Below are positions 1,312 through 64,000 of a stretch of 64,000 nucleotides of DNA, in pieces (within the stretch, counting starts at the first letter, position 1; every line of letters starts with the position of its first letter). The notes under the pieces were generated by a model. It saw only the letters and a list, made by a program, of their open reading frames with translations, did not search any database and was not told where the DNA came from. The translations under genes were made by a program, and so were the position numbers. Source of the stretch: an uncultured virus (IMG/VR IMGVR_UViG_3300003321_000657) (Duplodnaviria > Heunggongvirae > Uroviricota > Caudoviricetes); IMG/VR virus record IMGVR_UViG_3300003321_000657. The stretch is one strand, 5' to 3'.

Positions 1312-2375
1312 GGATTGTTAACATCGTGGACCCACATTGTCATCTTCGCGGCGAGGAGTATCCGGCTGTCGACTTCCTCGGAATGGCTTTAGACGACGCC
1401 AAGGCCGTTGGTCTGGCCGGGCTGATCGAGATGCCGAATCCGAAGCCGTGGCTGACCAATTCGAAGACCTGCGCCGCACGCGCCAACGACGTCCTGCTCA
1501 AGCAGGTCAATCGGCACATGGATATCCGTCATGGCATTCACATCGGCATGACGAATGATCCGCAGCAAGTCCGCGAAGCGCTCTCGCTGATCGCGGCCGG
1601 GTTTCCGCCCGTGCGCGGCGACAAGATTTTCTACACGCAAAGTACCGGAAATATGGGCGTCCTTGACCCGGAGTACCAGAAGTGGATCTGGGGTTACAAG
1701 GCCACGAATGGCTACAAAGGTGTCTCGATCGGGCACTTCGAAGACGAGACGTGTTACGATCAGCAGAATCCGTTCGATCCGAAGAAGCCGGTGACGCACA
1801 GCCTGCATCAGTGGAGCATCGCCGAGCAGAAGTCGATCGAGACGCAGCTCAAGAACGCCACTGATGCCGGATTCCGCGGCACGTTCTATATTGCCCACCT
1901 GACGTCACCGGCCGCGCTGGAGATCGTGCGCTGGGCGCGGAAGTTCGTGCCATTCAAGATCGTGGTCGAAGTGACGTGGCATCACCTGCTGCTGAACATC
2001 TGGGACTACGAAAAGCACGGCAACCGCGTGAAGATGAATCCGCCGCTGCGCGGAGACATGTGTCAGAAGGCGCTCTGGAATAGCCTGCTGCATGACGACG
2101 CGATCGATATCATCGCAACCGACCATGCGCCGCATCCGGTCGAACTCAAAGACAGCGACAAGCCTCCGTCAGGCATCCCGGGAATTCTGTTCTGGCCGAA
2201 AGGGATCGAGCTCTTGCATAAGTTCGGCATGGACCCGGAGCGGATCGCCGAGCTGACGTTCCACAATGCCAACCGCGTCTTTAACCTGCGGCTGGAGCCG
2301 CGCGAAGTCGACGTCGAATACAATCCGGAACTGTGGACGAAGTACGGCTGGAATCCGTTTGATCGGATTAAATGA
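1308..2375 (+). CDS. pyrC: Dihydroorotase (amidohydrolase superfamily)
   Basis: DPHCHLR metal motif, EMPN, KMNPPLR, IATDHAPH, PSGIPG; GGAGG RBS before ATG 1308; lies close to pyrD. Confidence 0.92.
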   Translation: MRIVNIVDPHCHLRGEEYPAVDFLGMALDDAKAVGLAGLIEMPNPKPWLTNSKTCAARANDVLLKQVNRHMDIRHGIHIGMTNDPQQVREALSLIAAGFPPVRGDKIFYTQSTGNMGVLDPEYQKWIWGYKATNGYKGVSIGHFEDETCYDQQNPFDPKKPVTHSLHQWSIAEQKSIETQLKNATDAGFRGTFYIAHLTSPAALEIVRWARKFVPFKIVVEVTWHHLLLNIWDYEKHGNRVKMNPPLRGDMCQKALWNSLLHDDAIDIIATDHAPHPVELKDSDKPPSGIPGILFWPKGIELLHKFGMDPERIAELTFHNANRVFNLRLEPREVDVEYNPELWTKYGWNPFDRIK

Positions 2376-3517
2376 TGATCATAGCACACAAGATCGCTCT
2401 CGATCCAACCCAGAAGCAGAGGGTATACTTCGCCAAAGCTGCTGGGTGTGATCGTTTCGTCTGGAATCTAGCTCTTGAGGAATGGAATCGCGCTTACGCC
2501 GCTGGCGAGAAACCGAATGGAGCGAAGATTAGAAAGGAGTTTAACCAGCATTGGAAACACGCGTTTCCGTGGATGGAAGAGCTACACAGAGATGCTCACT
2601 CTGAGGCATTTAGAAGGATACAGATGGCCTTCAACGCGTTTTTCGCTGATCCAAAAAAGACAGGACATCCGACCTTTCATAGAAAAGGAAGAAAAGAATC
2701 TTTTTATGTAGCAAATGACAGAATTGCATTCCGTGGATTCGCAGTTCGTCTCCCGCGAATTGGAGTGGTTAAGATGCGTGAGGAGTTGAGATATCACGGG
2801 AAGATTATGGGTGCTGTCGTTTCACGCCAAGCGGATCGGTGGTTTATATCTGTGCATGTTGACGCTGGAGTTATCGCAAAGGATCGATTGTCACATCACC
2901 GGGTCGGCGTTGACGTCGGAATTAAGCATTCGATAGTCCTGTCTACCGGAGAGATCCTAGTAGGTCCAAAGCCGCTTGCGGCTTACTTAAAGAGACTGAA
3001 GCGGCGCAGCAGAAAAACCTCTCGTCGCCTACTCGGATCGCGCAGGAGAAACAAGGCGTCGAGAATTTTATCTCGCCTCTACGCCCGTATCGCAAACATT
3101 CGAAATGACTGGATTCATAAGTTGACGACAAAGCTGTGCCGCGAGAACCAAGCGGTAGCAATCGAAGATCTGCATGTTAAGGGGATGCTTAGAAATCGGA
3201 GACTTTCCAGATCCATTAGCGATATGGGCTGGGGAGAGTTTAGGCGTCAGCTTGAGTACAAGTCTAAGATCTACGGTACAAAGCTGATCATTGCCGATCG
3301 ATTCTTTCCATCATCCAGAACATGCAGCCAGTGCGGTCACGTGAAAGAAAGTCTGTCGCTCGCAGAGCGTGTCTTTCGCTGTGACCAGTGCGGCTTCAAG
3401 ATCGACAGAGATCATAACGCCGCGAGGAACTTAATAGCGTGGGGCACACGCGAATTAACGCCTGTGGACAGTACGGCTCGTAAAGCGGCTGACAGAAGCA
3501 GGAATAGCACAGGGTAA
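2372..3517 (+). mobile_element. tnpB: TnpB RNA-guided endonuclease (IS200/IS605/IS607 type), no TnpA nearby
   Basis: N-terminal AHKIALDPT...AGCDRFVWN; RuvC residues GVDVG, IEDL, DRDHNAA; Zn ribbon CSQC...CDQC. Confidence 0.93.
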
Positions 3518-18937: not shown

Positions 18938-19242
18938 GGGGGTGAACCAGCATCGACGGAGTGTGGAAGGCTGCGGGAGCGCGCCGCAGGGATGGCTGGC
19001 TGCGTCAACAAGCCATCAACGTAGCAAATGCCAAGATCATTCGAGGCAACTTTGGCGTTCGCGCCAAAGCGCTGGCTGCCTGAGCCGGTGTAACCAAGCC
19101 CTTCGGGGCATAGGCACGTAGTACCCGCAGTACGGACGGATTGGATACCCGTTCGAGACCGGACGGCCAGCATGGCTGGATACGCGCGTAGAGCCCACAC
19201 TGGATGCACTTTCGGACTCGGGGGCAGCACCCGACACCTCCA
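18938..19242 (+). ncRNA. ssrA: tmRNA, one-piece; tag AKIIRGNFGVRAKALAA
   Basis: 5' GGGGGTG pairs with 3' CACCTCC-A including the G3:U alanine determinant; TCGAC after the 5' end; T-arm TCGGG-GGCAGCA-CCCGA; tag ORF 19030-19083 ends ALAA-stop; CCA not encoded. Confidence 0.93.
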
Positions 19243-19311
19243 ATCTGTCGTGAGTGGCAGCGATTTTAAGCCGCGGGTTTTGACGATACAAAACTTCGGC
19301 AGGATCAGAGC

Positions 19312-23769: not shown

Positions 23770-24690
23770 ATGGAGGGCATCATGGCCGACAAGAGTCGTC
23801 GTAACGCAGATATTTGGACTGTCAACAGCACTCAACCTATCCCGGATGATCAGATCCCGGACAGTTTACGCTCGATCCTGTCCTCTGAGCAGGACGTGCG
23901 GTATACGTCCGGGCTGATGATGAATATCGAGCCGCGCGTGTACTTCCTGTGCGCGTATGGAGAGGTGGTTTACGTCGGAGCTGCGCTGCGCAGTCCACTG
24001 GAGCGAGCCATGTTTCATTACTTCGACGGAAAGTATTTTGACTCGATGTTTTCAATTCCGTCTAGCGTAGAGGAAGTTTTCAGCAAGGAGCGCAGGTGCA
24101 TCAATGCGCTGCGGCCGTATTACAACGACAGTGGAGCGTACAAGGCTGAATGGAGGTATCGCTGGCCAGATCTCTCCAAGGAATTAGATGCGTATGCGAA
24201 GCATCGGATGAACGAGCTTCCTAATTATGGATCGCGCGGATCGCGTGGCGTTCCGTACAGCATGCGCGAGACAGACGCGAAGCATCGGATTAAATTCCCT
24301 CTGGATATTACGAATGAGCAGCGCCGCGCCCTGACGGTGCTGCGCCGACAGGCGACACTCAGTCGCAATAACGCTAGAACATGGCTGGCCGACACGCTGG
24401 CTGGAAGCCTATATGTCGATATTGCTCCGATCGCAGCAGAAACGTTGCAGGAATACGACGCGCGCAAGCTTGCAGAGGTGACGCAGCGCGCATTAGACAA
24501 GCTTGGACGCATTGATTTGCTTGCAGTCGTTGTGAATCGCACAGAAAATGAATTGCGCGCGCGTATCGCAATGCATTCGCGTGAAACTGAATTCTATGCA
24601 GAATCGCGCGCGTTAATCGATTGCCTTTTGTTGCAAGGGCAAAGCGTACGCGCTGCAAGGGGAGCAACAATGGGCGAATCAAACCAGTAA
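23770..24690 (+). CDS. Protein with GIY-YIG-like N-terminal domain
   Basis: VYFL...VVYVG...ER...H...E...I...PYYN pattern. Confidence 0.5.
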   Translation: MEGIMADKSRRNADIWTVNSTQPIPDDQIPDSLRSILSSEQDVRYTSGLMMNIEPRVYFLCAYGEVVYVGAALRSPLERAMFHYFDGKYFDSMFSIPSSVEEVFSKERRCINALRPYYNDSGAYKAEWRYRWPDLSKELDAYAKHRMNELPNYGSRGSRGVPYSMRETDAKHRIKFPLDITNEQRRALTVLRRQATLSRNNARTWLADTLAGSLYVDIAPIAAETLQEYDARKLAEVTQRALDKLGRIDLLAVVVNRTENELRARIAMHSRETEFYAESRALIDCLLLQGQSVRAARGATMGESNQ

Positions 24691-24713
24691 CGCAAAACAT
24701 AATCTGTATAATC

Positions 24714-24863
24714 AGTGCCAATTTTTGGCACTAAAGAGGTTTAGGGCTTAAATCATATAAGTCCTTGTCCTGTAAGGATTTAAGTGAAGAAAGATAATGT
24801 TCCCTTCTCTTTCATGATAATTAGTGCCAATTTTTGACACTAATTGTGCCAATTTTTGGCACT
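24714..24863. repeat. Three copies of the palindrome GTGCCAA-TTT-TTG(G/A)CAC; candidate enhancer sites
   Basis: Copies at 24714-24732, 24823-24841 and 24845-24863. Confidence 0.85.
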
Positions 24864-24909
24864 GTAGTATTTGGTAAAACAATGTAACTCTTTACAGCAA
24901 AACGACTTA
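24758..24909. promoter_or_regulatory. Two 25-bp TAA-N4-TT-N7-AA-N4-TTA elements, IHF-like
   Basis: TAAGTCCTTGTCCTGTAAGGATTTA 24758-82 and TAACTCTTTACAGCAAAACGACTTA 24885-909; half-sites partly match IHF consensus WATCAANNNNTTR. Confidence 0.55.
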
Positions 24910-24924
24910 GTTTTAGTGACGGAA

Positions 24925-24940
24925 TGGCACGTGGTATGCC
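24925..24940 (+). promoter_or_regulatory. Sigma54 (-24/-12) promoter
   Basis: TGGCACGTGGTATGC with exact GG-N10-GC spacing; predicted start near 24951. Confidence 0.7.
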
Positions 24941-24963
24941 TCACACCCATTGCCGTTTTTTGT

Positions 24964-24979
24964 TGCTCTTTGACAATTT
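24964..24979 (+). promoter_or_regulatory. boxA antitermination element
   Basis: TGCTCTTTGACAATTT differs at one position from E. coli rrn leader boxA TGCTCTTTAACAATTT; lies just after the predicted start. Confidence 0.75.
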
Positions 24980-25177
24980 GGCCGAATACCTTGCACGCGT
25001 AGCGCGTTCGCACGTGGGTGGATTCCCACTATCGGCGAATGAGGTGCACGCGCGCTAAGGTGTTTTGCCGTCATAGGGCGGGTTAGTGCTCCAATGGACG
25101 CTAGCGCGTTTCGAGTGGTATCGGACGATTCCACGCGCGCAAGGTTTGACGGAGCACAAGCGAAAGGGACGTGGAAC

Positions 25178-25849
25178 ATGGCAATCGAACACGTAGCGAA
25201 GTCACCCAAGGCGCCAGACGCGAACGACGCAAAGAAGGGCATGACAGAGGCACAAGCTTCTGACCTGCTCAAGTCAATCGCGCAACGCGTGCAAGGTCTC
25301 ACAATGCGAACGCGCAAGGAATATGTGTACATTGCGCGCTACACTCGCAAGTGGGGACGGTGGAAACTCGCGAACGCGAACGCCACGAATGCGGAATGCA
25401 TCTCTGCAATCGAGACAGAATACGACCTGCAAAACGTCAAGCTTGACGTTGGATTGATTCGCAGGTCGTTTGCCGTGCTGCCAGACTGGCGCAAGGCCGA
25501 GAAACTCGGCAAGGTCAAAGAGTTTTTCGCGTGCACCACGCAGGAGCAAGTTGACGCCTTGTTACAGAAGAAAGTAACGGCGCCGACGCGCAACGCGAAA
25601 ACTGGCATCGCGGGCAAAATCGCAGCATTTCAAAAGACACTCGCAAACTGCGTCAAGAAAAACGACGTGGAAGCTTTGCGCGTGTTCGCGAAAGTCGCTG
25701 CTGATGCCTTGGCAACCGTTGAAGGCAAGCGCAAGCGCAAGGCGCCGAAAATCGAGAATGGCGCCGTAGTGAACGACGCGCCGAAAACATCGGCGCCAGA
25801 AAAACCCGCTATGACTCCGGCGCCGGAATTGACTCCGGCCGGAGTGTGA
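25178..25849 (+). CDS. Basic Lys/Ala-rich hypothetical protein (223 aa)
   Basis: ATG 25178 in the frame of track ORF 25094..25849, preceded by AAAGGGA and followed by a terminator. Confidence 0.75.
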   Translation: MAIEHVAKSPKAPDANDAKKGMTEAQASDLLKSIAQRVQGLTMRTRKEYVYIARYTRKWGRWKLANANATNAECISAIETEYDLQNVKLDVGLIRRSFAVLPDWRKAEKLGKVKEFFACTTQEQVDALLQKKVTAPTRNAKTGIAGKIAAFQKTLANCVKKNDVEALRVFAKVAADALATVEGKRKRKAPKIENGAVVNDAPKTSAPEKPAMTPAPELTPAGV

Positions 25850-25866
25850 AAACTGAATAGAAGTGG

Positions 25867-25902
25867 ACGGGGAGCGTTGAAAAACGCTCCCCGTTTCTTT
25901 TT
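25867..25902 (+). terminator. Intrinsic terminator
   Basis: 12-bp stem ACGGGGAGCGTT-GAAA-AACGCTCCCCGT followed by TTCTTTTT. Confidence 0.8.
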
Positions 25903-25947
25903 GCTCATTCTCGCGAGTGAGCAAAAAGAAACGGAATACCGTTTCAC

Positions 25948-26740
25948 GTGACTGTGCAGCATTGCGCAGACGGAAAAACATGGGCGGAGTGTGTAACTCT
26001 GTCATGTGTGAGTGTGGCCGGAACGCCGATACGGTGCGACGTGCGAGCAATGCCGTGTTGGGTGTAGTGTAGAGCCTCTGTCCGCATGCCAGACGAAAAT
26101 TTCCGGTGACCATGACCGGTCTGCGATGCCTTGTCACGTATGCCGATGAACGGCTAAATGCCGCGGCATATCTGCACAGTCACCTTTGAGCGCTGAGTGG
26201 CCGAAAGTGCAAGGGCAATAGCCTTGCAGCGTGTTGGATGCTCTGTCGCGTACGCTTCCGGATGGAAGCTAATCGGCGCGATGGAACATCGAATGCGTGC
26301 ACGCTACCTATCGTCGTGGGGCGTACTGAGAATGCGCACTTGAACGGCGATAGACTGTGCGAATATTCGCAATTCCGGGTTAAGCGCCGTGCGCTCCGGA
26401 TCTGCGCAAGGGTGAACTATTGCCTTTGAAAATTCGCGCAACCCGTCCAGTATGAGAATCGGGTAGGGTGCTTGAAACAGCACGACGTTACGCCATTACG
26501 GGAAAGAAGTAGAATGGTGCGCGCCCGCGATCACGCGCGGCCGGATGCAGGGGAGTCCTCACATCCCGCCGTCAAATCGCCCTTCTTGTCCAGTGGAATG
26601 CACTGGCAACAATCGAAGATAGAACTGATGCAAAATATTGGCAAGGCTTAACCGCGGCCTTTGTGTGCGGCAATGCACAGACTTTGCATCGCAGTTCGGC
26701 CGGGCGCAGTAGTGCAAGATGCTGCGCCCGGCCATTTTAT
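25948..26740 (+). ncRNA. Large (~800 nt) highly structured non-coding RNA, family unassigned
   Basis: No credible CDS; more than 15 helices including GTGACTGTGCAG 25948-59 / CTGCACAGTCAC 26172-83 and long-range GGTTAAGC 26378-85 / GCTTAACC 26646-53; ends at a terminator. Confidence 0.75.
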
Positions 26741-26743
26741 TTT
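26698..26743 (+). terminator. Intrinsic terminator at the 3' end of the large RNA
   Basis: GGCCGGGCGCAG...CTGCGCCCGGCC followed by ATTTTATTTT. Confidence 0.75.
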
Positions 26744-26774
26744 CGAAACGTTTTCACAACAAGAGGGTGACACC

Positions 26775-29700
26775 ATGTCTGCACAAAATACGCTGGGTGT
26801 AGTGCGCAGCGCGCGAGAAGAAGCGCTTCGCCACTGCAAGCACGGAGAAAAGCCGCAAGTGAGCTCAGAATCGAACATCCGGCCGATCGGACCCTGCAAG
26901 CCGCTGACGCTCAACCTTGGCGCGCTGCTGAAAAAGGCGCTGCGCTGATGGCGATGCGCAACGACACGCGCGCGGAGCTGCGCATGCTCCGCCAACTCGT
27001 CTGGCATGCGATCGAAGGGAAAGTCTGCCGTTTCTGCGGCAACGCACTGGCGCCAGACTGGGAGATCGCATACGGCCATGGCGACGCGCCAGAGATGCCG
27101 GTGGAGCTCACTCTCCACCACATCGACGAAAATCCAAACAATAACGCGCCTGCAAATCGCGAGATCTGTCATCGCGCGTGCCACAAGGCACACCATATGA
27201 GCGCGCAGCGGCGCTCGGGAGTAACGGCATGAGCTACTTTCGGATTAACGCAAATAATGTGGCGCATCTTCACAAGGGTATCGACTTTGTCGCGGCCGGT
27301 GGACAGCATATTGTCAGCTTTGCCCTACTAACAGATCCATTCCCACAGGGTGTATCTATCGCCATCGCTGATTATGTTGATGGTATCTGTACACGCGCCG
27401 CACACAATTCGACGGTGTCAACGGAGTGTTTTAATCAGTTTAAAGAAGATACGAGGCTGCGTGCTGTGCGTCTTATGAAGCTTCTTAGGAATGAACAGGA
27501 GCGAGCTAAAGCATGAAATGCGCCCGCACGGCATGCGACCACGAAGAAGAAGGTTGGCAGCACACGGACGGCACGAAGCGCCGCTACTGCGGCCAGTGTG
27601 CGCACAAGATCAACGTCTTTCATCACGACTTCTATAAGACCACAGACGATCTGATCCGCCATATCAGCGGAAAAACCGCACAGCAGCTCGAACTGGAGAA
27701 ACGCAAAAACAATGCACCCTGATCTACTCTGGATTCAAACCAGACTGTACAACAACATTGCCTTGCGCACGCAGAGTCGCATTTACCGCGCGTTCGAGCA
27801 AGCGCCGATGAGTCAGAAAAACCGCACAAGGGCTCTCGCAGCGCTGTCGATCTCACGCATTCATTCCATCACCAACAGCCGCATACAGAGTTTCGCGCGA
27901 AGGGAGCGAGCGCATGGCTAAGAAAGCCACGGCGTTCTACAGCCCGGTTCCATTGTCGGCCTGTCGCATCTGCGGAACAAGGTTGCGGCCGGGACAGTGG
28001 GCGACATGCGGCAATAGCCATTGCAGCGAAGCGAACCACTACGGCGCTCTGGCCGAACTGCGGCCGCGCCTCAAAGAGCAGTACATGCAGCGCAGCAATG
28101 AAGCGCGCGCATGCCGAATGCGACAACTCGGAGACTGAAAGGACGCACATGCTAACCGCTAAACGCTGCGATCAATGCGAGCTCCTGCGCATCAACGGCG
28201 TGGTCTGCCACGAGATCGGCTGTCCGAACATGGGCGCCAAATGGGACCACGAGCGCGAGCAGTGGGTGCATTACGTCGAATGCTGGGAGTGCGGCTGCGA
28301 AGTCGAAAAGGGCGAGGCGTGCTCGTGCATGACGCCAGAAGAGGACTTGGACGAACATGGCTGAAACGAACTACAAAGGCATCGACTACGGACTGGGCCA
28401 GTCCAATGTCGATAAGTCAAACGGCATCCGCTACGGCGTGATCAATCAGAATGAGGTCCTGCAAGCGTGGTGTGACGCCAGCGAACCGTACTACGGGAAA
28501 CCGACGTGTCCGAAGTGCGGCAACGAAGCTATCGAATCGGACAAGGCTCCGGAGAAAGACGAGGACGGAAAGCCGATCGATCGTGACGAGTACGAAGAGG
28601 GTCACGGCTGTAACGATTACGTCTGCGATAGCTGTAAGTACATCTTCGATAGCGACGAAGCATTCGGCGACGAACCGATCTCGCACTACATCGACGACGA
28701 GGAATACAAGGCCGAATGCGGAGAGTCGGGCGACATTTTCATCACAAAGTCGCCCTACTACACGCGGGCGCAATTCTGCTCACCATGCGCGCCGGGTGCC
28801 GGGTATCTCATGAACCCGTGCGACAGCGGAGAGAAGGCGTATTGCTTCGGCCACGACTGGTTCGAAGATAAGACGGCGCCTTATCCGGTCTACCGCGTAG
28901 ACGACGATTCGCTGGTTTACCCGGACGTCGATTACTACACGCGCAACGGCGACGAGCAAGTGGTGGGCTGGGACATGGACGAAAGCGGACTGCATCCGTG
29001 GGTGCGCACGCGGCGCATGGGATTCGTGGTGTACAACGGGGAGACGAAATAATCGACGGAGGCAGCACATGGCTGATCTACCCAAACACCTTTTCATCGG
29101 ATACCCCGGCAATCTATACGATACGCGAGTGCCAGAGTGGCACAAGCAAGCGCCGCTGCGGCCAAACTACCAGTACACGGCACGCGAGATTAAGACCGTC
29201 TCCCAGTTGAAAGCGACGCTGCGCGCCGGTCCGTACGCGTGGCCGGGCGGGTATCCGCTGTACTTTCTGTGCAGCGACGGAGAAGCACTGTCGTTTAAGA
29301 CCGTGCGCAAAGAGTTCAAATTGATCGCGCGGGCGATCAAGCACACGGACAATACGGGCGGCTGGCGCGTGGTCGGTTGCGACGTGAATTACGAAAAAGC
29401 GGATCTTTACGACGCGCACACCAACGAAAAGATTGAGGCTGCATACGTATGAGAAAGTCACGCTGCACGCGCTGCAAAGGTCGCGGCTACTACACGATCA
29501 AGCAGTGGGTCGGACACTACTGGAGCCGCCCGGCGATCACGTGCGGCGTCTGTGGCGGAACAGGAAAGAAAGGAGCGGAAAATGCTTCCAGTTGAAGAAG
29601 TCGGCGAAGGACTGCTGATGTTCAAGGCAGAAGATCTCTGGGAGTTGGCAAAGCAGTGGGGGCGCGAAAACGGCAAGGAATACAAAAACGGAGCGCTCCA

Positions 29701-35700: not shown

Positions 35701-38487
35701 TGTCATGTGCTCGGGAGTAAGGGGAAGCCCGGCCGCGATTTCATCGACACGTCACCGTCGATCTACTTCAGCGGTTTCTCTTCGCAGGGCGACGGCGCTT
35801 GCTTTGAGGGTACGTATAAACCGATCGAAGACGCGGCCGCGCGTATTCGACAAGAAACGAACAACACGGAAACAGAGCTGATTCGGATCGCAGAGGCGCT
35901 CTATACGCTCCAGCAACCGTATGAGACACATAGCCTGCGGCTGGTCGCATCCATAACGCACTCCGGCCGCTACTCTCACAGCGGGACCATGAGCGCTGAA
36001 GTGAAGTGCGTCAATCTTGACGGAGATGAATGCGACGCGCCAGAGCACTTGGCGAAACGCGCCGCCGAAGATGACGAAAAGTTGGAGCGCCTCATGCGCG
36101 ATTTCGCTGACTGGATCTACAAAAGTCTAGAAAAAGAGTATCGCGACCAGATGAGCGACGAGCACGTAGACGAATCTATCATCTCCAACGAATACGACTT
36201 CACTGCTGACGGCAAGCGTTACCGCTACGAATAGGAGCTAACATGTACAACCGTAGATTCATCACGTACGCCGTCAATAAAGACGACGATATCGTATGGT
36301 CTCGTGTCGGAAGCGAGATCGCCTGTCCAGTGCTTGACTTTGAAGCCATAGGAAAAGGTGGAGACGGGTTTAAGAAAGGCAACTTCAACGGGCCGATACG
36401 CTACGAACTCCAGAAGTTTCCGGTTCACAGCTTGGCCGGTCGCGACTGGAATCGGTTGAAGTGGACGAAAAAGATTCCGAAGCGCCTCAAGAACAAACAC
36501 CGCAAGTTCTGGGGGTTCAAGCCGCTATAAAGGAGCACGTAATGAATCTTCCGCACATCGCATGCCATACATGCCCGCAGTGCGGCGCGCAGGCGACACA
36601 CGAGCACTTGTCTGAGCGGACGCACGTGAACGGCGGACGCTGGGAGACGCGCACGTTTGCATGTGGCCTGTCGCTGAGCTACGTGCCGAATTTTTCGGCG
36701 GTCGAGACCGAAGGCGAATGCATACGCAGCGCCGAGCACCAAGCAAAGATCAAAAAGCGCGAGAAGCTGTATTCTGCGATCAGGGCCGTCATTGCAGAGA
36801 GTGACGCCGATGAGTACTACAAGACAAATCTCGTCCATTCGATTGTCGGCTATAAGCCATAAGGAGAGCACGCATGAGACTATGGCGATATACGTTCAAG
36901 CTGCGGCATGATAACGGCACTGTCAGGCTTAGCACGGTGGCGCGCAACCGGGCAACGGCGACAGCGATCATTCTGAACGCCGAGCGCGCGCCGCGAAGCG
37001 CGATCATGTCGATCGAGAGGAGCAGCCTTAAATGAAATTCACCGTACACCTGTACGCCGTCGCGATCGTAAAAGTCCGCAACGTGAATACTATGGCGGCA
37101 TTCGAGATTCAGCCAGCCATCGTGTCGGCCTACATGAACGATCAGGCCGTGACTCTGACGATGATGGCTGAATACCTCTATCAAGTGCGCGGCGGATCTT
37201 CCCACGAACAGGCGGTCAAGGCTGCTAATGCGAAGCGCCGGGCAGTGCGCAAGGCGATCGGCTACAGCTACCCGGAGTCCGGGGAGTTCACGTTTTAAGG
37301 AGGAGCCATGGCGAAGAAGAAAAAGAAGGTCAAGAAGAATCCCATGGCGTCGATGGCGTCAGTGATCACCACGCTGGCTCCGTACGTCGCCAAGGATGAT
37401 GCAAAGCTGCCGCGCAAGGAATTTCTGCGGCTGGTGGCCGATCGTATCAAAGACGATATCGGCGAGAGCAACGGCGGAGAAGATGACGCCGCATTCATCT
37501 CTGCCGCGAAAGATAACTACACAGGCTGCGGCGGCGAGTACTCGGATGGAGACATTAACGTCGACGATGATGCCGTAGTGAGCCAATCCGACAAAGGCGC
37601 GTATGTAGCCGCGTGGGTGTGGGTCACGAACGAAGAGGCCGGAATTGAAGGTGAAGACGACGGCGAAGACGACAAATCCGAGACCACACAGTCATGAACT
37701 ACGTCATCACTCAGCGCATCAATCACAAGTTTCAGAAGATGTACGCGCAGGTCGAGCTGGAGCAGCGCGTCAATAGCCGCGACTTTGAGCGCCTTCTGGA
37801 TCTGGCTAAGTCTATGGGCGGCTGGTATGCGAAGCGCTACCACGCCGATCCGGGCGGGTTTGCGTTCGAAGCTAAGGACGCCGCTGTGGCGTTCGCGCAC
37901 AAGGCATTTACGAAAGAGGTAGTCAATGGAATGTGATAACGACGAGGATCTTACCACGCGGCACGTCATGCTGACGATCAGAGCTCCGAAAACTCTGAGT
38001 GACGAGCGTGTGCTCGAACTGATCGGAGAAGTAATTGACGTCGGCATGGCAGACGCAAATGAAACGAGAAACAACCTCGCGTGCGACGAAAAGCAGATCA
38101 AAGAAGCCGATGAAGCGTGGAGTATATGCGTCGAAGGCTCGGAGATGCTCACCGAGGCATGGGTGCGATACGCGAAGGAGGAAAGCGATGGCGAAAAAGC
38201 CTGAGTGGTATCTCGTGCTGCAAGAGGGCGGCACGTCTCTGGAGTGGTACTGTAATGTGTATCCAAATCTAAAGCAGGCGAACGCACGCAAAAAAGATCT
38301 GGACAAAAATACGTCGTTTCGGTCGGTCGGACCGATTAAGCTAGGTGTGTTCGTCGGCGATCAGTGCCGCAACGACCACTTCGCAGCTTCGCTCATGGTT
38401 CTAATCGAGCGCTGTTGCGAAGAAGTGATTGCAATGCGGATTGGAGTCAAACTCGATCGATTACGGAGCTCTGCGGCAAAATCATGA
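26775..38487 (+). CDS. Cluster of roughly 35-40 short hypothetical genes, early/host-takeover-like (e.g. 28357-29052, 29069-29452, 30269-30815, 31711-32151, 32354-32680, 32843-33439, 33923-34318, 34321-34659, 34652-35104, 36243-36530, 37308-37697)
   Basis: Dense same-strand small ORFs with GGAG RBSs and ATGA/TGATG overlaps; no functions recognised. Confidence 0.65.
26948..27232 (+). CDS. Small HNH-motif protein
   Basis: CRFC...LHHIDENPNNN...N...CHRACHKAHH. Confidence 0.75.
   Translation: MAMRNDTRAELRMLRQLVWHAIEGKVCRFCGNALAPDWEIAYGHGDAPEMPVELTLHHIDENPNNNAPANREICHRACHKAHHMSAQRRSGVTA
33436..33923 (+). pseudogene. Phage hypothetical protein whose start codon is out of frame
   Basis: GAGGAGGAG RBS and ATG 33436 are one base out of frame with DEFTAAYIEALLW...AGHDFLLTREGHGCGFWDGDW. 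Confidence 0.5.
35515..36234 (+). CDS. Conserved phage/plasmid protein (family often labelled antitoxin-like)
   Basis: TVYKFDELSDEAKETAREW, FSGFSSQGDGACF, NEYDFTADG. Confidence 0.6.
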   Translation: MPAQKTVTVYKFDELSDEAKETAREWWREQIFQDSSDWEFVYDDAVRMGKMLGITIPPRNQKCHVLGSKGKPGRDFIDTSPSIYFSGFSSQGDGACFEGTYKPIEDAAARIRQETNNTETELIRIAEALYTLQQPYETHSLRLVASITHSGRYSHSGTMSAEVKCVNLDGDECDAPEHLAKRAAEDDEKLERLMRDFADWIYKSLEKEYRDQMSDEHVDESIISNEYDFTADGKRYRYE

Positions 38488-39203
38488 GCCTGATCAACAA
38501 ATTGAAGCTTCTCAGTCTTTTTAGTCTGCTGTGCTCCAGCGCCTTCGCCTTCAATGTCGAACCGGGCGTAAAGTTGCCACCGATCGTGATGTACAGTTGT
38601 AATGATGCGGACTTAGAGCCGATCTTTGTAAAGCAGTTCGCGAAATGGAACGACGCCTGCGGTAACTACTTTACACTCAAGAAGTGGCCGGAGAGCAGCA
38701 CGCCGATCAATATCGTCATCTCGAAACAGCATCTGGAAAAGCCATATCTGGCGTGGACTAGCTTGGCTCCGGGCGGACCGGCCAACATATCCATTCAGTG
38801 GCCGCTCTTACCTGCGTACGACATTCATGACGTCGATACGATCATGCTGCATGAGATCGGTCATACGCTTGGCTTGGAGCACGTCAAAGACACGGCATCC
38901 ATCATGGACGCTGTCGTCGTTCACGGCCAAAGCGCGACCCTGAGCGACGACGATATTAAAGGCGTGAACTCTATCTATCACGCCGACGAAAAGAGTACGC
39001 TAACGATCCGCGTTATCGGCCACGGCCGCTCGCGCGTCTTGAGGATCACCGGGAATATCAAAGTCGACTGGGATTTTGGTGATGGAGCAGCTCTGCGCAA
39101 TTCCTTTTTGGCGCGCCATAAATTCACCGCGCGTGGAGAGTACTTCGTAACTGTACGGCACGGACTATCGATCGGATGGGTCTACATCTCGATATCGAAG
39201 TAA
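38484..39203 (+). CDS. Secreted metzincin (matrixin-like) metallopeptidase with C-terminal PKD-like domain
   Basis: Signal peptide ending AFA; HEIGHTLGLEH; SIM Met-turn; WDFGDG...HKFTARGEYFVTV. Confidence 0.85.
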   Translation: MSLINKLKLLSLFSLLCSSAFAFNVEPGVKLPPIVMYSCNDADLEPIFVKQFAKWNDACGNYFTLKKWPESSTPINIVISKQHLEKPYLAWTSLAPGGPANISIQWPLLPAYDIHDVDTIMLHEIGHTLGLEHVKDTASIMDAVVVHGQSATLSDDDIKGVNSIYHADEKSTLTIRVIGHGRSRVLRITGNIKVDWDFGDGAALRNSFLARHKFTARGEYFVTVRHGLSIGWVYISISK

Positions 39204-43677: not shown

Positions 43678-44349
43678 ATGAATGCCAAGCCAATACCCTC
43701 AATGAACAACGTTGAAGTCAATCGTTTCAAAAGTTATGTCATGTCCGGAGGCATAAACGAATGCTGGCTGTGGAGTGGCTCGCTGAGTCCGCAGGCATAC
43801 GGACAGTTCAAACTCAGAGGTCTGATGTATCGATCGCATAGGGTAGCGTATAGACTGCATTACCGCATTGATCCAAAAGATCTTGACGTTTGCCATGACT
43901 GCGACAATCCGCCATGCTGCAATCCGCACCACCTTTTCCTAGGAACTCAGGCTGACAATAAGGCCGACTGCGTTAAAAAGTCGCGCCAAGCGCGCGGCGA
44001 AAGAGTGTCCACGGCAAAACTGACAGTTCAGGACGTTATCAACATTCGTAAACTATACGCAAATCGAGCGGCCTCGATTAAGAAGATTGCTCGCATGTAC
44101 GGCCGTAAGTTTTCTACGATTCAGAAGATCACGAGCAAGCGTAGCTGGAAGCATGTTGGCGGACCAATTACGCGATGGAACAAACGCAGCGGATTCGTGA
44201 CCTGCAAGTTTTCCGATGATGAGGTGCGAAAGATTCGTCAGTTGCACAAAGACGGGGCGAGTCGATCGTCAATGTCGCGAATGTTCGAATGCAGTCGATC
44301 GACAATTCGGAGGATTGTGACGCGTGAGTCCTACGCCAATGTAATTTAA
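43678..44349 (+). CDS. HNH homing endonuclease with HTH-like tail repeats
   Basis: CWLWSG...YG...HRVAY...HDCDNPPCCNPHHLFLGTQADN; KLTVQDV and KFSDDEV repeats. Confidence 0.88.
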   Translation: MNAKPIPSMNNVEVNRFKSYVMSGGINECWLWSGSLSPQAYGQFKLRGLMYRSHRVAYRLHYRIDPKDLDVCHDCDNPPCCNPHHLFLGTQADNKADCVKKSRQARGERVSTAKLTVQDVINIRKLYANRAASIKKIARMYGRKFSTIQKITSKRSWKHVGGPITRWNKRSGFVTCKFSDDEVRKIRQLHKDGASRSSMSRMFECSRSTIRRIVTRESYANVI

Positions 44350-52618: not shown

Positions 52619-52741
52619 CCCCAACCATCCCCGCAGTATCCCCGCCTCAAACTCTTTCACGCCGAGAAAGAAAACGTTCTTGAAAAACTAAAAGGGTTTG
52701 ATAAAAACGTTTTCCAAATCGGCGCGGAAGGGTCCTACCTA

Positions 52742-56907: not shown

Positions 56908-57217
56908 ACGTCTGATTGTTGATCGTGCGCCGACAGCACACGACGCAATAGTAGTTTCCATCCGGACAGAGGAACACACGGCGGATCTGTTTGCATCCCG
57001 GAGAAACGCACTCGCCGTATACGCGGGATGGCCTGTATTCCTTCTTAGATCCGCAGCCCTTGCGCTTGGTCCGCTCGTCTCCAATACAGACCAGCCAGTG
57101 CGCGCCCTTGCCGTCGACGACGTGCGCAAAGGCAGACGTCATATTGCATGTGTCGCAGAATTCAAGAAAGCGCGAGTGCTTGTGGTACTCGTTGAGGCCA
57201 CGACGCTCGACTGTCAT
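56885..57217 (-). CDS. Cys-rich zinc-finger-like protein
   Basis: Several CxxC pairs; last gene of the minus-strand block, converging on the + strand genes. Confidence 0.6.
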   Translation of the reverse strand: MTVERRGLNEYHKHSRFLEFCDTCNMTSAFAHVVDGKGAHWLVCIGDERTKRKGCGSKKEYRPSRVYGECVSPGCKQIRRVFLCPDGNYYCVVCCRRTINNQTFKTSIDR

Positions 57218-57229
57218 GACCAGCCTCTT

Positions 57230-59371
57230 TCATTTGCGAAACGCCCAGTACAGCGCGCCTACGGCCAATCCGAGCAGCAGGAGCTTGTTCGACGCTTCGA
57301 TCGACGGCGCGGCGCCAAGACCGGTCATGGCTCCGCCAGACTTGCTGGCGATGATCGCATCCATCGGCAGCGCTGGAGGAATATCCTGCGTGCGATCCAG
57401 CGTCGGATCGCCGGTCATACTGATCTGCGATCCATAGTTTACTGGGAAGGGCGCACTGAAGTTGCCACCCGGACCCAGCGGCGGAAGATTGCCGCCTGCA
57501 TTTGCCGCGTTCGCTGGTTTCTTGCCACCTCCGCCACCCGGATTTTGCGGGTTGATCTTGATGGGCGGCGTCCGCATCTCCGTTCCGAAGATGATCGTCG
57601 GATCTGGGTTGTACAGAAATGTGCCGCCCGGATCTTGCGTGACGTACGGGTAGATATTGCCTCCCTGCGCCGGGCCTTGGTTGACCGGAACCGTCGTCAT
57701 ACCATCGGCAGGCGCTGCTGGCCTGAATGTCAAGCCGGGCGGCGGCACGTAAACTGGCTGCTGTGGCGCTGTCGGCCGAGCACCATAGTCGATCATGCCG
57801 CCCTGCTGTTGAGCTGGTGGCGTAAAGCTGATCTGCGCGTCTGAAATGACCGGCGCGGCCTGCACGGGTCCGCACTTGGCCAGCATTTGTTCGGCCGTGT
57901 AGACGCTCGGATCGTAGGTCAAGACCTGCCCGTTTGCACAGGTGACAGATTTGACCGCAGGCTGCGCCGCGGACGCGGCTGCCGCGATCTCTGTCGAGGT
58001 CATGATGTGGACGCCGGGAAAGCCGCCCCTCGCCGGGCGCTGTTTCTTCGGCCGTGGCGGGCATTTCGCGCCAACCTGCGCGTAGCTGCCGTCCCAGCAC
58101 TTATGTACCCGTGGTTTTCGCACTGCCGCCAGTCCGTACATGCCTGAGCCTCCGCCGATGACCACCTGCGCTTCTTCGCCAGTAGCCGGGTTAAACCACA
58201 CCGTCGATCCGTCCTGCTTATGCAGCTTCGCCCAGCCCGGCGCATTCGGTACGATCAGCTTGGGACCTGTCGAGATGGGCGCGTCTGTGGGCGGAGCACT
58301 GGTGACCGGCCTTGATCCGGTCGGAACCTTGACCAGCGGCGTGCCCGGCGCCACGTAGACCGGCTGTGCGGCCGGAGTCTGTGAAGGCTGGACCTGTTGT
58401 GGCGCGGTCGGTGTGGCTCCGTAGTCGGTCCCGCCTTGATGCACCGGACCAATCTGCTGGTAGTAATTGTTGGGATCGTACGGAACCGAGGCCGGTTGTG
58501 ACGGCGGAAGCGGGATTCCGTATGCATTCGACCCGCCCGGGAGCTGCGATGCGTCCCAGTTTTTCGGCGTACACAGGGTCATAGGATCGATCGCGTCGAA
58601 AAAGGACACGATCGATCCATCTGGACAGTTGTACGTCTGCATCTTTTTCGGCGCTGCTACAACATGCGGCCGGTTTCCAACGAATTTCGCGATCGCCGAT
58701 CCGACCAAAAGGCGCGCGCCGATCTTGATTCCCTGACTCTTAGCCTCTTTGACCAGCCGATTCATGGCTGACGAGGCTGAACTGAGCGCATCCGAGACCG
58801 CTCCACTCTCTTTGATGGCCTGAACAGTGGCCGCGGCCTTACTCTTGGCGCTCTGGTATCCAGACGAAACGGCCGTGGCTGTAGCGTGCGCGATGCCAGC
58901 GTTGACCCGCGCCTGCGCATTGACGCACAGTGCCTGTAGCAACTGCGCCAGCTCGGCGGCTTTCAGGTAGGCTCCGCCCTGATCGTATGAGTCGAACATC
59001 TTGCGCGCGTTGGCATACCCGCCATTTTCGAACCACGATTGCAGGTCTACACCACCGGTCATAGCCGCAGATCCGCCACTTCCGGCCGCAGCGCGCACGA
59101 GAGGGTTGTTTTTGAGCTTGGGGCCGAGCGCGGAGAGCCGATTCAGCGTGGTATTGAGCCAGTCGCGTGCGCGCGCTGCGTTGCGAAACTTATCCGACTC
59201 GCGATGGCCGGGCGCTTCACCGCTGTCGGCGGTCGGATCGTAATGCCAGCCCTGATAGATTCCCGAGGTGTTAGCCGGAAAGGCGTTCGCCAGATCGCAG
59301 AACTCCTTCAGCGCGCGTAGAACCTCGTTTGCGGCTGCCAGATCCACGTTTCCGCTCAGGAATCCGATCAT
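57230..59371 (-). CDS. Large Pro/Ala/Gly-rich protein with C-terminal membrane anchor (putative virion protein)
   Basis: ATGA coupling at 59371; ends LLLLGLAVGALYWAFRK. Confidence 0.75.
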   Translation of the reverse strand: MIGFLSGNVDLAAANEVLRALKEFCDLANAFPANTSGIYQGWHYDPTADSGEAPGHRESDKFRNAARARDWLNTTLNRLSALGPKLKNNPLVRAAAGSGGSAAMTGGVDLQSWFENGGYANARKMFDSYDQGGAYLKAAELAQLLQALCVNAQARVNAGIAHATATAVSSGYQSAKSKAAATVQAIKESGAVSDALSSASSAMNRLVKEAKSQGIKIGARLLVGSAIAKFVGNRPHVVAAPKKMQTYNCPDGSIVSFFDAIDPMTLCTPKNWDASQLPGGSNAYGIPLPPSQPASVPYDPNNYYQQIGPVHQGGTDYGATPTAPQQVQPSQTPAAQPVYVAPGTPLVKVPTGSRPVTSAPPTDAPISTGPKLIVPNAPGWAKLHKQDGSTVWFNPATGEEAQVVIGGGSGMYGLAAVRKPRVHKCWDGSYAQVGAKCPPRPKKQRPARGGFPGVHIMTSTEIAAAASAAQPAVKSVTCANGQVLTYDPSVYTAEQMLAKCGPVQAAPVISDAQISFTPPAQQQGGMIDYGARPTAPQQPVYVPPPGLTFRPAAPADGMTTVPVNQGPAQGGNIYPYVTQDPGGTFLYNPDPTIIFGTEMRTPPIKINPQNPGGGGGKKPANAANAGGNLPPLGPGGNFSAPFPVNYGSQISMTGDPTLDRTQDIPPALPMDAIIASKSGGAMTGLGAAPSIEASNKLLLLGLAVGALYWAFRK

Positions 59372-60243
59372 CTCTTCAGCACCTTCCACAGCACCAGCCC
59401 GGCGATCGCGGCTGCCGCAATGCCGCCGCCGATGAGTGCCCAGTTGGTCTTGCTGGTGTACACTTCGACGGGCATGGTCTTGGTCGTGAGTTTGCCGGTC
59501 ACGGCCGACAAACCTGACAGCGACAGGCCCTTGAGCGTTTTACTGAACTCGCCCGTGCGGCTGTTGCGGAAATACTGCTCGCCGTCGAGTAGCACCGCTT
59601 TCCAGCCGTTCTTACCGCCAGCCTGAAGGACGTTGCTCCACGAATTCGTGTTAGCGCTGACGCTCGTGGTGATCGTGGTTGTACCCGCGTAATCTCCGGA
59701 CACGGGCGGCTTCGGTTTCGATTTTCCACCTGACGTCGTCATGTTCGTATCCGGGAACAAGCTCTGGAAGATCCCGCCCGAAGTGACCACGGTCGGAACG
59801 GAAGGAGTCGCCATAGGAGCCCAGACCATGTTCGGATCGCTGACCTTTACGCTCACGGGCGGCGCGGCGTCGACTGGCATCGTAAAAGCGGCCGCGGCTC
59901 CGCTATCCGGCGCCTTAAAGATGTCGTTGATCGTTGGCCAGAACGAAGAGCCTGCCGCGCTGGCTGGCGGACCGAACTGATCGGCGCTGGGACCGTAGTG
60001 ATACGGGTCCTTTGCAACCTGCATCGACACGGCAACTGGAGTGGGTTCCACCACACTGGTGGAAGAGCAGCCGCCGCTCCCTCACCTGAATTGCACGCGC
60101 GGACTGGGACGGTACGACGAGCTCGAAGTTGAGCTCACTGACGGCGATACGTATGTAGATCCGCCGTCAGACGATCCGCCCTTGTCCGGAATCCACTGTC
60201 CGGACGCATCCTCGTCATGAAGCGCGGCAATGTTCAGCGGCAT
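59368..60243 (-). CDS. Ser/Pro-rich protein with C-terminal membrane anchor and one in-frame TGA at 60082-60084
   Basis: GGAGG RBS and ATG 60243 are in frame with track ORF 59368..60054; ends WALIGGGIAAAAIAGLVLWKVLKR. Confidence 0.65.
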
Positions 60244-60244
60244 G

Positions 60245-60793
60245 TTATGCCTCCTTCGCGTCTTTCTTCTTCTTACCCTCGTCGATCTTGCTGACGTTCG
60301 ACTTCTCTTCGCCTTCTTCGTCTTCGTCCGGAGCGGTCATGGACGCCATGGATTCGAACTTGCGCGGCCGATCGTTGAAGGCGTCTTCGAGCTCCTGATA
60401 AGCTTCGACCTTCTCGACCAGATTTCCGACCGGTTCGTAGTGTTTCAGGACTTCAAGCACGTAATCGCAGTAGCTCTGCTTGAGAAAGCCCGAGTGCTTC
60501 CCGGCCTTGTAGCCCTTCTCGCACTTCGGATCGCCTTCCGGATCGACCGGCTTGAGCACGCATTCGCGCATCCACTTCTGGACGTGCTCCATCAATTTGC
60601 GCTTGGGCCGGTCTGTGGTCATGTAGACGTTCGGGACGCCCTGACCCTTGGTCATTCCCGCCTGAATCAGCGGGAGCTTGAACGGCTCCAGCAGCATGTG
60701 CGCCAGCATTTCGACAGCCTTTTCCGACAGTTCCAATTTCATGAGCGCTCTCCTCTCCTTGAGACGATCCAGTGTATGTTTCGCCATCCCCAT
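60245..60793 (-). CDS. Hypothetical protein
   Basis: ORF track; highly charged C-terminus. Confidence 0.7.
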   Translation of the reverse strand: MGMAKHTLDRLKERRALMKLELSEKAVEMLAHMLLEPFKLPLIQAGMTKGQGVPNVYMTTDRPKRKLMEHVQKWMRECVLKPVDPEGDPKCEKGYKAGKHSGFLKQSYCDYVLEVLKHYEPVGNLVEKVEAYQELEDAFNDRPRKFESMASMTAPDEDEEGEEKSNVSKIDEGKKKKDAKEA

Positions 60794-60833
60794 GGAGCGG
60801 ATTTTACGAAATGTTTCCCGAAAAGGCAACCGG

Positions 60834-62870: not shown

Positions 62871-62888
62871 ATTGCGTTACTCCCCTAC

Positions 62889-63959
62889 CTACAGTTGTGA
62901 ATCCAAGGTGTAATGCCCGGTCAACTCATTGCTGTCGGTTCCGGCCGTAACCTTTACGCCGCAGCCGGAAAGACCAATGTTTTGCGATGTGACGGCTACG
63001 TTCGCTCCCGGTCCTGTCGTGTCTCGCCAATTGGCAGTGGTTCCGGCCGGTGTCAGTAGTGTCACGGTCGGCGTCTTTGGCTTGCGCTGTCGGTAACGGA
63101 TCGGAGTGACTGACGTGGTTCCGACCTGCATCGTCTGCACCGACCCTACCAGAGTGTTGGTCGCTGACGGCGTATCGATGTCGTACGACTTCTCGTAGAA
63201 GCGCTCCACTCTGGCCTGATCCTCCGCGGCCGAGAGCGGATACCATGCCGTACGCACGGCTCCGCCGATGTTGAGGTGGCACTCGCCCACATCGAATGTC
63301 TCATTGATCGCCATACTGTCTTCGATCATGATCGCGACGACCAGATTGCTGATACCGCTGCCCGGCATCGTGAACGACACATTCCACGTTCCGATGCTTG
63401 TCCCTGCGCTGGCGGCGCTGATGAGCGTTGTTCCAATGTAGGCCCAGTTGGCATTGAGACTCATCGGACTGGTCGTGAAGTCCGAGATCGGAGCGGTCAT
63501 GGCGTCCGCTGTGCCGGAGAAGTTCAGGAACGCCAAGCGGAACGCGCGCGCTGTCGAGAACTGAATATTGATCTGAAAGTTGACCGTCTGGTTGAGCAGT
63601 CCAAGCGTCACCAGATTCTCGATGCCCTGAAAGATGACCATGCGCCCGGCATTGGTGATCTTTTTGAAGCGGCCGCGGTTAGCCGAGATCCAGCCCGACA
63701 CGCCAGAGTTCGACACGCGCTGATACTGCATGCCAGCATTTTGCTGCGTCATCTTCCAGCAGTCGGCGCCGTAGCTGTTGTCGGAGATGGTGGTCAGCGT
63801 ACCCGGAGTCTGGAGCTGGGCGAAGTTGAAGCCGGGGTTACACAGCAGGTTCTGCTCTGGCCGTGCGCCAGCCGCGAGACTGGCGAGCGCGACGCTGCCG
63901 TCCACGATCTGACTTGAAGAGCTGATGTTGGCTGGCGGTTTACAGATCATGTACGTCAA
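62889..63959 (-). CDS. Tail-fibre-like protein
   Basis: QNLLCNPGFNFAQ, ADCW, RFYEKSYD, KPKTPTVT pattern typical of phage fibre domains. Confidence 0.65.
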   Translation of the reverse strand: MTYMICKPPANISSSSQIVDGSVALASLAAGARPEQNLLCNPGFNFAQLQTPGTLTTISDNSYGADCWKMTQQNAGMQYQRVSNSGVSGWISANRGRFKKITNAGRMVIFQGIENLVTLGLLNQTVNFQINIQFSTARAFRLAFLNFSGTADAMTAPISDFTTSPMSLNANWAYIGTTLISAASAGTSIGTWNVSFTMPGSGISNLVVAIMIEDSMAINETFDVGECHLNIGGAVRTAWYPLSAAEDQARVERFYEKSYDIDTPSATNTLVGSVQTMQVGTTSVTPIRYRQRKPKTPTVTLLTPAGTTANWRDTTGPGANVAVTSQNIGLSGCGVKVTAGTDSNELTGHYTLDSQL

Positions 63960-64000
63960 TCTCCATCACATCTAACTCACCTTGCGCTTCTTCTGTCGGC

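Follow-up and report, generated by a model that had tools for sequence, protein, structure and literature searches.

GOLLD and ROOL are RNAs of phages and prophages that assemble into cages, GOLLD as a 14-mer and ROOL as an octamer. According to a recent description, many members of GOLLD are longer than 800 nucleotides, are composed of multiple domains, and have an unknown function, ROOL is a large, structured RNA that mobile elements carry and for which no protein partner is known, both are typically located near tRNA islands, and Rfam contains profiles for GOLLD and ROOL as well as OLE (bioRxiv 10.1101/2024.12.08.627333). A 64,000-nucleotide stretch of an uncultured, phage-like, mobile element (IMG/VR record IMGVR_UViG_3300003321_000657), referred to here as the window, contains a gap between credible genes, which most probably specifies at least one folded non-coding RNA of no known family. 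An initial annotation of positions 25948-26740 proposed a large, pseudoknotted RNA on the scale of GOLLD and ROOL. The comparison holds with respect to size; however, it does not extend to the Rfam models of the two families or to their association with tRNA genes. GOLLD resembles the candidate in its length, phage-like carrier, and multi-domain fold, which is predicted here, and ROOL resembles it as a large structured RNA of a mobile element. By contrast, the gap fails the GOLLD model at E-values of up to 10, and the window has no tRNA genes. It differs from ROOL in matching no model and in lacking a tRNA neighborhood, and the pseudoknots and intermolecular kissing loops of ROOL are unsupported here. 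Whereas GOLLD is backed by extensive covariation, the gap is known from one sequence and one partial relative.

The ORF map places all credible genes between 1 and approximately 57 kb on the plus strand. The products of the element include a dihydroorotate dehydrogenase fragment, TnpB, a HerA-like ATPase, thymidylate kinase, ThyX, a DUF1643 protein, a PDDEXK nuclease, an HD phosphohydrolase, a SLOG protein, a dual-specificity phosphatase, an HNH endonuclease, an M10 peptidase, an AAA ATPase, and an integrase. The AAA ATPase reaches best identities of 25.7-31.2% to phage proteins, and a 719-residue protein has no match in the phage collection. Judged from such comparisons, the window appears to be without a close cultured phage relative. 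The stretch is present in two root-metagenome runs from one study, from which it may derive; a third run of the same study is of low depth, leaves the gap uncovered, and is uninformative. None of the listed sequencing runs containing the stretch is an RNA run. From about 57 kb (57000-64000), the coding strand switches and the GC content rises to 0.61, and the minus-strand ORFs of 719, 678, and 356 residues in this part have no Pfam match.

The TnpB gene (2372-3517, plus strand) is of the IS605 OrfB type with a Cas12f-like TNB domain, and an omega-RNA is expected at the 3' end of such a gene. A 94-residue HNH endonuclease is encoded at 26948-27232 on the plus strand, 200 nucleotides downstream of the gap, and an HNH-plus-HTH protein at 43678-44349; both HNH genes are free-standing and homing-endonuclease-like. 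The plus-strand gene at 38364-39203 combines a matrixin (M10) zinc-peptidase motif with a PKD domain, which is an odd cargo for a phage-like element. The segment 27517-28356 contains 840 nucleotides without an ORF of at least 100 residues and is occupied by four tandem plus-strand ORFs of 69-88 residues, which have mixed codon scores (0.06-0.5) and belong to no identified family. The only RNA gene detected in the window, 6.7 kb upstream of the gap, is a tmRNA-like match at 18938-19243 on the plus strand, amid phage-like genes. It scores 63.3 bits against the gathering score of 47 over the full length of the Rfam model RF00023. ARAGORN called no tRNA gene in the 64 kb and did not call the tmRNA either. 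Because the Rfam model matches and ARAGORN does not call it, the tmRNA appears to be divergent and borne by the element. Huge phages are already known to carry tmRNAs (PMC7162821).

The gap is 925 nucleotides long (25850-26774) and extends from the stop codon of a gene encoding a 251-residue protein (25849) to an ATG at 26775, which is preceded by a ribosome-binding site. Within it, 26138-26647 is the sole stretch of at least 200 nucleotides in the 64 kb that lacks an ORF of at least 70 residues in all six frames, in agreement with the annotation, which described the region as the longest ORF-free stretch. The minus-strand ORFs bordering 26138-26647 are antisense shadows of real plus-strand genes. 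The GC content of the gap is 0.57, not enriched relative to its surroundings.

Table 1 Features of the gap and its borders, with positions given in window coordinates
Feature	Position	Strand	Description
T1, intrinsic terminator of upstream gene 25094-25849	25865-25896	+	14-pair stem followed by a T-run; -25.3 kcal/mol
Hairpin/palindrome, 20 bp	25891-25934		20 nt, 95% complementary; -30.1 kcal/mol
Weak terminator-like hairpin	25928-25945	-	7 pairs followed by TTTTT; -8.1 kcal/mol
Domain 1, 236 nt (predicted)	25948-26183	+	closed by a perfect 12-bp helix, 25948-59/26172-83
Domain 2, multi-branched (predicted)	26184-26618	+	very stable arm 26211-26355; three-way element 26356-26440
Conserved core, 129 nt	26396-26524	+	~95% identity to a soil contig; flanks diverge
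Domain 3 hairpins (predicted)	26619-26697	+	26622-34/26683-97; 26643-48/26656-61; 26664-69/26674-79 with a GCAA loop
T2, intrinsic terminator	26698-26743 (hairpin 26698-26733)	+ only	14-pair stem with 11 G-C pairs, followed by ATTTTATTTT; -31.6 kcal/mol
Near-palindromic motif, variant of GAAAACGTTTTC	26744-26755		just before the next gene (ATG 26775)

The terminator T1 is the left boundary of the non-coding unit. The 20-bp hairpin that follows overlaps both the U-tract of T1 and the next hairpin, so that the upstream gene is followed by three overlapping, mutually exclusive hairpins at 25865-25945. The arrangement of a T-run, a stem, and an A-run in the 20-bp hairpin is not that of a terminator on either strand, and, from its position, this hairpin may serve the unit as operator or promoter. 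At the opposite end, T2, the proposed 3' terminus of the RNA, has an ensemble pair probability of 1.0. There is no internal plus-strand terminator in the interval between T1 and T2. From its context, the near-palindromic motif beyond T2 is read as the beginning of the next regulatory unit. The sequence GAAAACGTTTTC and its near variants form eight 12-nucleotide sites in the window (14428, 18288, 18921, 26744, 32169, 39206, 44348, and 52703), most of which are 6-45 nucleotides upstream of gene starts, with one of them 6 nucleotides before the tmRNA; a second copy of this type is located near the last site, at approximately 52675-52690. The motif is likely to be regulator-binding or promoter-associated. 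A different repeat, the 17-bp palindrome GTGCCAATTTTTGGCAC, is present three times (24715-24731, 24824-24840, and 24846-24862, one copy with a single change) in an operator-like array within the 400-nucleotide gap 24690-25094 upstream of gene 25094-25849.

The predicted folding of the gap is more stable than that of dinucleotide shuffles, which served as the null. The 793 nucleotides of 25948-26740 have z-scores of -4.23 on the plus strand and -3.70 on the minus strand, and none of 20 shuffles folds as well on either strand. Without the terminator (25948-26697, 750 nucleotides), the z-scores are -3.98 and -2.69, respectively, with 0/60 shuffles as good in each case. Ten 750-nucleotide coding controls from the same window range from +1.42 to -2.93 with a mean of -1.05, and the gap lies below all ten of them. 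The folding excess is real but moderate, as the coding controls are not beaten by a wide margin. It is also distributed unevenly along the gap. Domain 1 has a z-score of -3.31 on the plus strand (0/100 shuffles) and of -1.73 on the minus strand (4/100). Domain 2 reaches -4.03 on the plus and -4.59 on the minus strand (0/60 each), and its stable arm -5.09 and -4.31 (0/100 each). By contrast, the segment 26356-26526, which contains the conserved core, folds weakly, with z-scores of -1.89 on the plus and -1.76 on the minus strand (4/100 shuffles each). Successive 200-nucleotide plus-strand windows have z-scores of -4.6, +0.27, -3.5, -5.26, -2.92, +0.16, -1.35, and -3.23, where the value of +0.16 belongs to the window at 26400.

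The predicted ensemble is well defined, and most helices have probabilities above 0.9. The 12-bp clamp of domain 1, the two halves of which are 212 nucleotides apart, has a probability of 0.92-0.99; the hairpins at 26242-85 and at 26308-53, like the element 26356-26440, lie at 0.93-1.0. Domain 2 is closed by long-range helices of only 6 bp. The pairings quoted in the initial annotation, including the 12-bp helix and an 8-bp pairing of 26378-85 with 26646-53, are all present in the DNA, and its domain 2 hairpins recur in the minimum-energy fold (26242-51/26276-85, 26308-17/26344-53, 26441-45/26460-64, 26590-95/26601-06, and 26627-34/26683-90). Its GTGCT/AGCAC pair and its palindrome at 26359-70 can be read directly in the sequence. 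The number of perfect pairings expected by chance, calculated as N squared/2 divided by 4 to the power k for N = 793, is approximately 0.02 for 12 bp, 5 for 8 bp, 19 for 7 bp, and 77 for 6 bp. Of the pairings, only the helix of 12 bp, the hairpins of 10 bp, and the terminator are above chance. The crossing pairings of 6-7 bp and the 8-bp pairing 26378/26646 occur at chance frequency and, therefore, carry no weight by themselves. In the nested ensemble, the pairings 25959/26053, 26378/26653, and 26207/26227 and the self-pairing of the palindrome have probabilities of 0.0; crossing pairs lie outside that model. The pseudoknots of the annotation are thus not upheld by anything in the analysis, and its long-range joint exists as complementary segments but is among about five 8-bp pairings expected by chance. 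The proposal that the palindrome mediates assembly of several RNAs fares similarly: the palindrome is there, but the idea rests on a pairing of chance-level length, and the palindrome is predicted to be part of the helix 26356-64/26432-40 (probability 0.96), and hence not exposed for kissing interactions.

Inverted repeats may also act in the DNA itself. The operator gap at 24690-25094 has, in the window starting at 24700, z-scores of -4.9 on the plus and -6.3 on the minus strand, far beyond those of shuffles. Therefore, DNA palindromes alone can yield low z-scores. With clear DNA operators so close by, and with a perfect 12-bp inverted repeat spaced by 212 nucleotides and many other inverted repeats in the gap, the locus could be a DNA-level element, for example a replication origin, a site of packaging or recombination, or an insertion of the MITE type with the 12-bp repeats as its borders. 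This is very unlikely. An origin is not indicated by iterons, direct-repeat arrays, an AT-rich block (the GC content is 0.57), or a turn of the cumulative GC skew, and a MITE is not indicated by a second copy in the window or in any collection searched, or by a target-site duplication. Moreover, the stems carry G-U pairs and bulges instead of exact symmetry.

The sole relative of the gap is a 219-nucleotide contig from a soil-metagenome run, which belongs to another study and another habitat. It aligns only to the conserved core, with five substitutions and one deletion in 129 nucleotides. The 18 nucleotides before and 73 nucleotides after the core are unaligned, and identity falls abruptly from 95% to approximately 50% at the core edges. 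These sharp edges could equally be those of a recombination mosaic, as in phages, instead of the result of selection on an RNA. The C-to-T change at 26439 converts the predicted pair G26357-C26439 (probability 0.997) to G-U on the plus strand, assuming that G26357 is unchanged, and the one-nucleotide deletion at 26451 is in a hairpin loop. Reading of 48 flanking bases by hand indicates that the hairpin 26383-95 is kept with one double change from C-G to A-U; reading by hand also indicates that the CGCGC/GCGCG stem 26520-24/26535-39 is kept, with five of the ten loop bases different. The visible changes fit the predicted plus-strand fold, which is suggestive but anecdotal, as it concerns one partial relative. 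In the same soil run, two short pieces of lower identity correspond to 26937-26976 and 27116-27152.

Other searches for relatives gave no match to the gap. Comparison by blastn with 50,697 phage records and 72,556 plasmids found nothing, and the flanking proteins have no relatives in IMG/VR. The upstream protein has a single homologue (P0002) among 5.8 billion proteins, with approximately 68-70% identity; the alignment of the two has no match in JGI metagenomes, and the Protein Atlas places the upstream protein in viral hypothetical clusters only. For a 127-residue neighboring protein, 198 relatives were found and 80 loci kept, none of which contains a likeness of the gap (best E 0.068 over 39 nucleotides) or has more than 1-3 genes in common with the window. 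An exact 20-mer of the core occurs 0 times in IMG/VR, once in metagenomes, and once in GTDB genomes, both occurrences being bare 20-nucleotide chance matches. Two core 18-mers have 2 and 0 matches in IMG/VR, at chance level, and a stem-degenerate pattern of the core has none. Comparison with five whole IMG/VR records of 87-308 kb yielded only matches of 14-21 nucleotides (best E 0.11).

The gap is unlikely to be coding. The codon log-odds, from a model for which 27 of the window's genes served as training set, are close to 0 or below in all three plus-strand frames of sliding windows starting at 25800-26625, whereas the flanking genes score +0.2 to +0.5 in frame. The six plus-strand ORFs in the gap, 39-63 residues long, score -0.16 to +0.05, which places them in the lowest 1.5-10% among 135 real 55-codon chunks and near the median for 117 ORFs read in a wrong frame. 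At E <=0.001, Pfam and PHROGs match none of 20 stop-to-stop fragments, and matches with E of 0.02-0.45 are limited to 2/20 fragments in Pfam and 4/20 in PHROGs. For two frames, a search of 5.8 billion proteins yielded only the window's own 45-residue call P0003 or nothing, and P0003 searched against 1.84 billion representatives has no relative beyond one marginal match to a 1321-residue protein (E 4.6e-4). The deletion at 26451 in the soil contig disrupts the minus-strand ORF 26304-26483 and is positioned between two plus-strand ORFs; therefore, coding does not explain the conservation of the core.

It is nevertheless conceivable, at a low probability, that the gap contains a gene, preceded by a conserved leader, for a small protein of either 45 residues (26514-26651, P0003) or 63 residues (26238-26429), and that the core represents the promoter of this gene, its 5' untranslated region, and first codons. 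P0003 is a gene-finder call in the protein collection, a purine-rich stretch precedes its ATG, and the relative, read by hand, continues in frame without a stop for 10 codons beyond the core. Some accepted small genes nearby score just 0.06-0.18, which therefore leaves room for a single small gene. However, the codon scores of the two ORFs are 0.05 and 0.0, close to the null median, searches of protein collections found no homologues, the most open frame is unlike the proteins of the window in its Cys, Arg, and Ile content, and such a gene would account for at most 190 of the 925 nucleotides. Still less credible is a decayed or recoded gene, with frame 0 (25881-26651) as a pseudogene or with TGA or TAG read as sense. 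This frame has 4 stops in 257 codons as opposed to 11-12 in the other plus-strand frames, and reading TGA as W gives a 181-residue ORF at 26106-26651. However, it contains 5.9% Cys, 13.0% Arg, and 1.6% Ile, compared with 1.9%, 7.1%, and 6.3% in the window, a make-up unlike that of proteins; its codon score is approximately 0, and it matches no family or homologue. No single reassignment (TGA as W, TAG as Q, or TAA as Q) opens the entire gap or yields a credible gene across it, and the neighboring genes are intact under table 11, including the upstream gene, the stop codon of which is TGA. The claim that the stretch is non-coding and structured, made in the initial annotation, is borne out by the lack of a coding signal and by folding better than that of shuffles and controls; the stretch also ends in the strong plus-strand terminator T2.

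The folded RNA would be encoded on the plus strand, the only strand on which T2 acts as a terminator. Thirty of 258 pairs in the plus-strand fold are G-U, compared with 35.8 +/- 3.2 in shuffles, and 12 of 237 in the minus-strand fold, compared with 23.0 +/- 3.8. The smaller depletion on the plus strand fits helices selected on that strand, and the view that G-U pairs favor the plus strand thus receives modest support. No sigma-70-like promoter was found on the plus strand near 25900-25950, and only weak internal sites are present at 26340 and 26487; the element may use other promoter types. A sigma-70 promoter-like site with 9/12 matches is located on the minus strand at 26644..26616. Such sites occur once per 2.5 kb, which equals the shuffle expectation (mean 1.0). 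The main feature that keeps a minus-strand transcript in consideration is the weak hairpin at 25928-25945. Together with its T-run and the promoter-like site, it could delimit an RNA of approximately 690 nucleotides, running from 26644..26616 to 25945-25928 and antisense to all neighbors, to which the minus-strand z-scores of -2.69 (0/60 shuffles) overall and -4.59 in domain 2 would apply. However, such an RNA is improbable: the overall z-score is weaker than that of the plus strand and that of domain 1 is just -1.73, G-U pairs are strongly depleted, the change at 26439 would produce a C-A mismatch if its partner were unchanged, the promoter-like site occurs at shuffle frequency, and there would be no transcript for the strong terminator T2 to act on.

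A search of the whole window against Rfam 15 at gathering scores identified the tmRNA only and nothing in the gap. At E-values of up to 10, the region 25700-26900 has 13 sub-threshold rows, 11 of which fall on the terminator hairpins left of 25953, while the two inside the gap reach 18.5 and 14.3 bits, where the gathering scores are 45 and 46.6. Searches of four sub-stretches at E-values of up to 5-10 added nothing. The check proposed with the initial annotation, against GOLLD, ROOL, OLE, HEARO, RNase P, and group I/II introns, thus gave no match at any threshold; therefore, the gap does not belong to these families. Models of raiA, known ribozymes, and riboswitches in Rfam 15 have no match in the gap either. 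An intron was also rejected, because a stop codon and a terminator close the upstream gene, so that no reading frame is split. Cis-acting leaders and attenuators (riboswitches, T-boxes, and antitermination elements) are similar to the gap in being structured and having a terminator approximately 30 nucleotides before the ribosome-binding site of the next gene. However, the gap is several times longer than leader or attenuator RNAs, it matches no Rfam leader or riboswitch, no antiterminator pairing with T2 is predicted (T2 probability 1.0), and the recurrent regulatory motif separates T2 from the next gene. The gap also resembles orphan terminator-bounded structured non-coding RNA candidates, with which it shares a non-coding gap, an intrinsic terminator, folding better than that of shuffles, the absence of a family, and few or no relatives; unlike these, the gap is not GC-enriched and its carrier is phage-like, not a small bacterial genome. 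As an orphan RNA locus, the gap is credible but unproven.

The preferred reading, with a probability of about one-third, is that the gap is a self-contained non-coding unit on the plus strand that ends at T2 and probably yields a single multi-domain RNA of 0.7-0.8 kb with the 129-nucleotide core as its functional surface. Transcription of the upstream gene would stop at T1, and a new transcript would start in or just after the hairpin cluster 25891-25945, probably near 25948. It would fold as three modules (25948-26183, 26184-26618, and 26619-26697), presumably within a single transcript, and end at T2, after which the next gene would be served by its own regulatory motif and ribosome-binding site. 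Through the core, the RNA may act in trans by binding another RNA or a protein, and the surrounding helices, which are more variable, may be the scaffold of this surface. A lesser likelihood, below even odds and on the unlikely side, is given to the main rival, a composite spacer in which terminator hairpins and an operator or promoter region are strung together with at least one short RNA and filler; examples would be an RNA of approximately 130-350 nucleotides containing the core, or a short T2-terminated RNA from 26620-26740. Such a composition is consistent with the conservation of just 129 of approximately 790 nucleotides in the sole relative, with the patchy folding across 200-nucleotide windows, with the weak internal promoter-like sites at 26340 and 26487, and with the chance-level lengths of the short helices joining the modules. 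By contrast, the absence of an internal plus-strand terminator between T1 and T2, the strongly favored domain-closing helices (probability 0.92-0.99), and the two stems that, read by hand, persist in the flanks of the relative argue for a single unit.

The broader proposal, that the single multi-domain RNA represents a new class of approximately 0.8 kb from an uncharacterized lineage of large phage-like elements of soil and roots, unrelated to GOLLD and ROOL, with the core as an active site and perhaps with the ability to form higher-order particles, is doubtful at present. With one genome and one partial relative, it has the standing of a lead. If the RNA is real, it would add a new class to the large phage RNAs, a kind that is already known. 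GOLLD and ROOL form RNA-only cages of unknown function, and few classes of such RNAs are available, so that an unrelated class would widen the comparison. Another class, from another phage lineage and habitat, could help to show what role such RNAs have for the phage.
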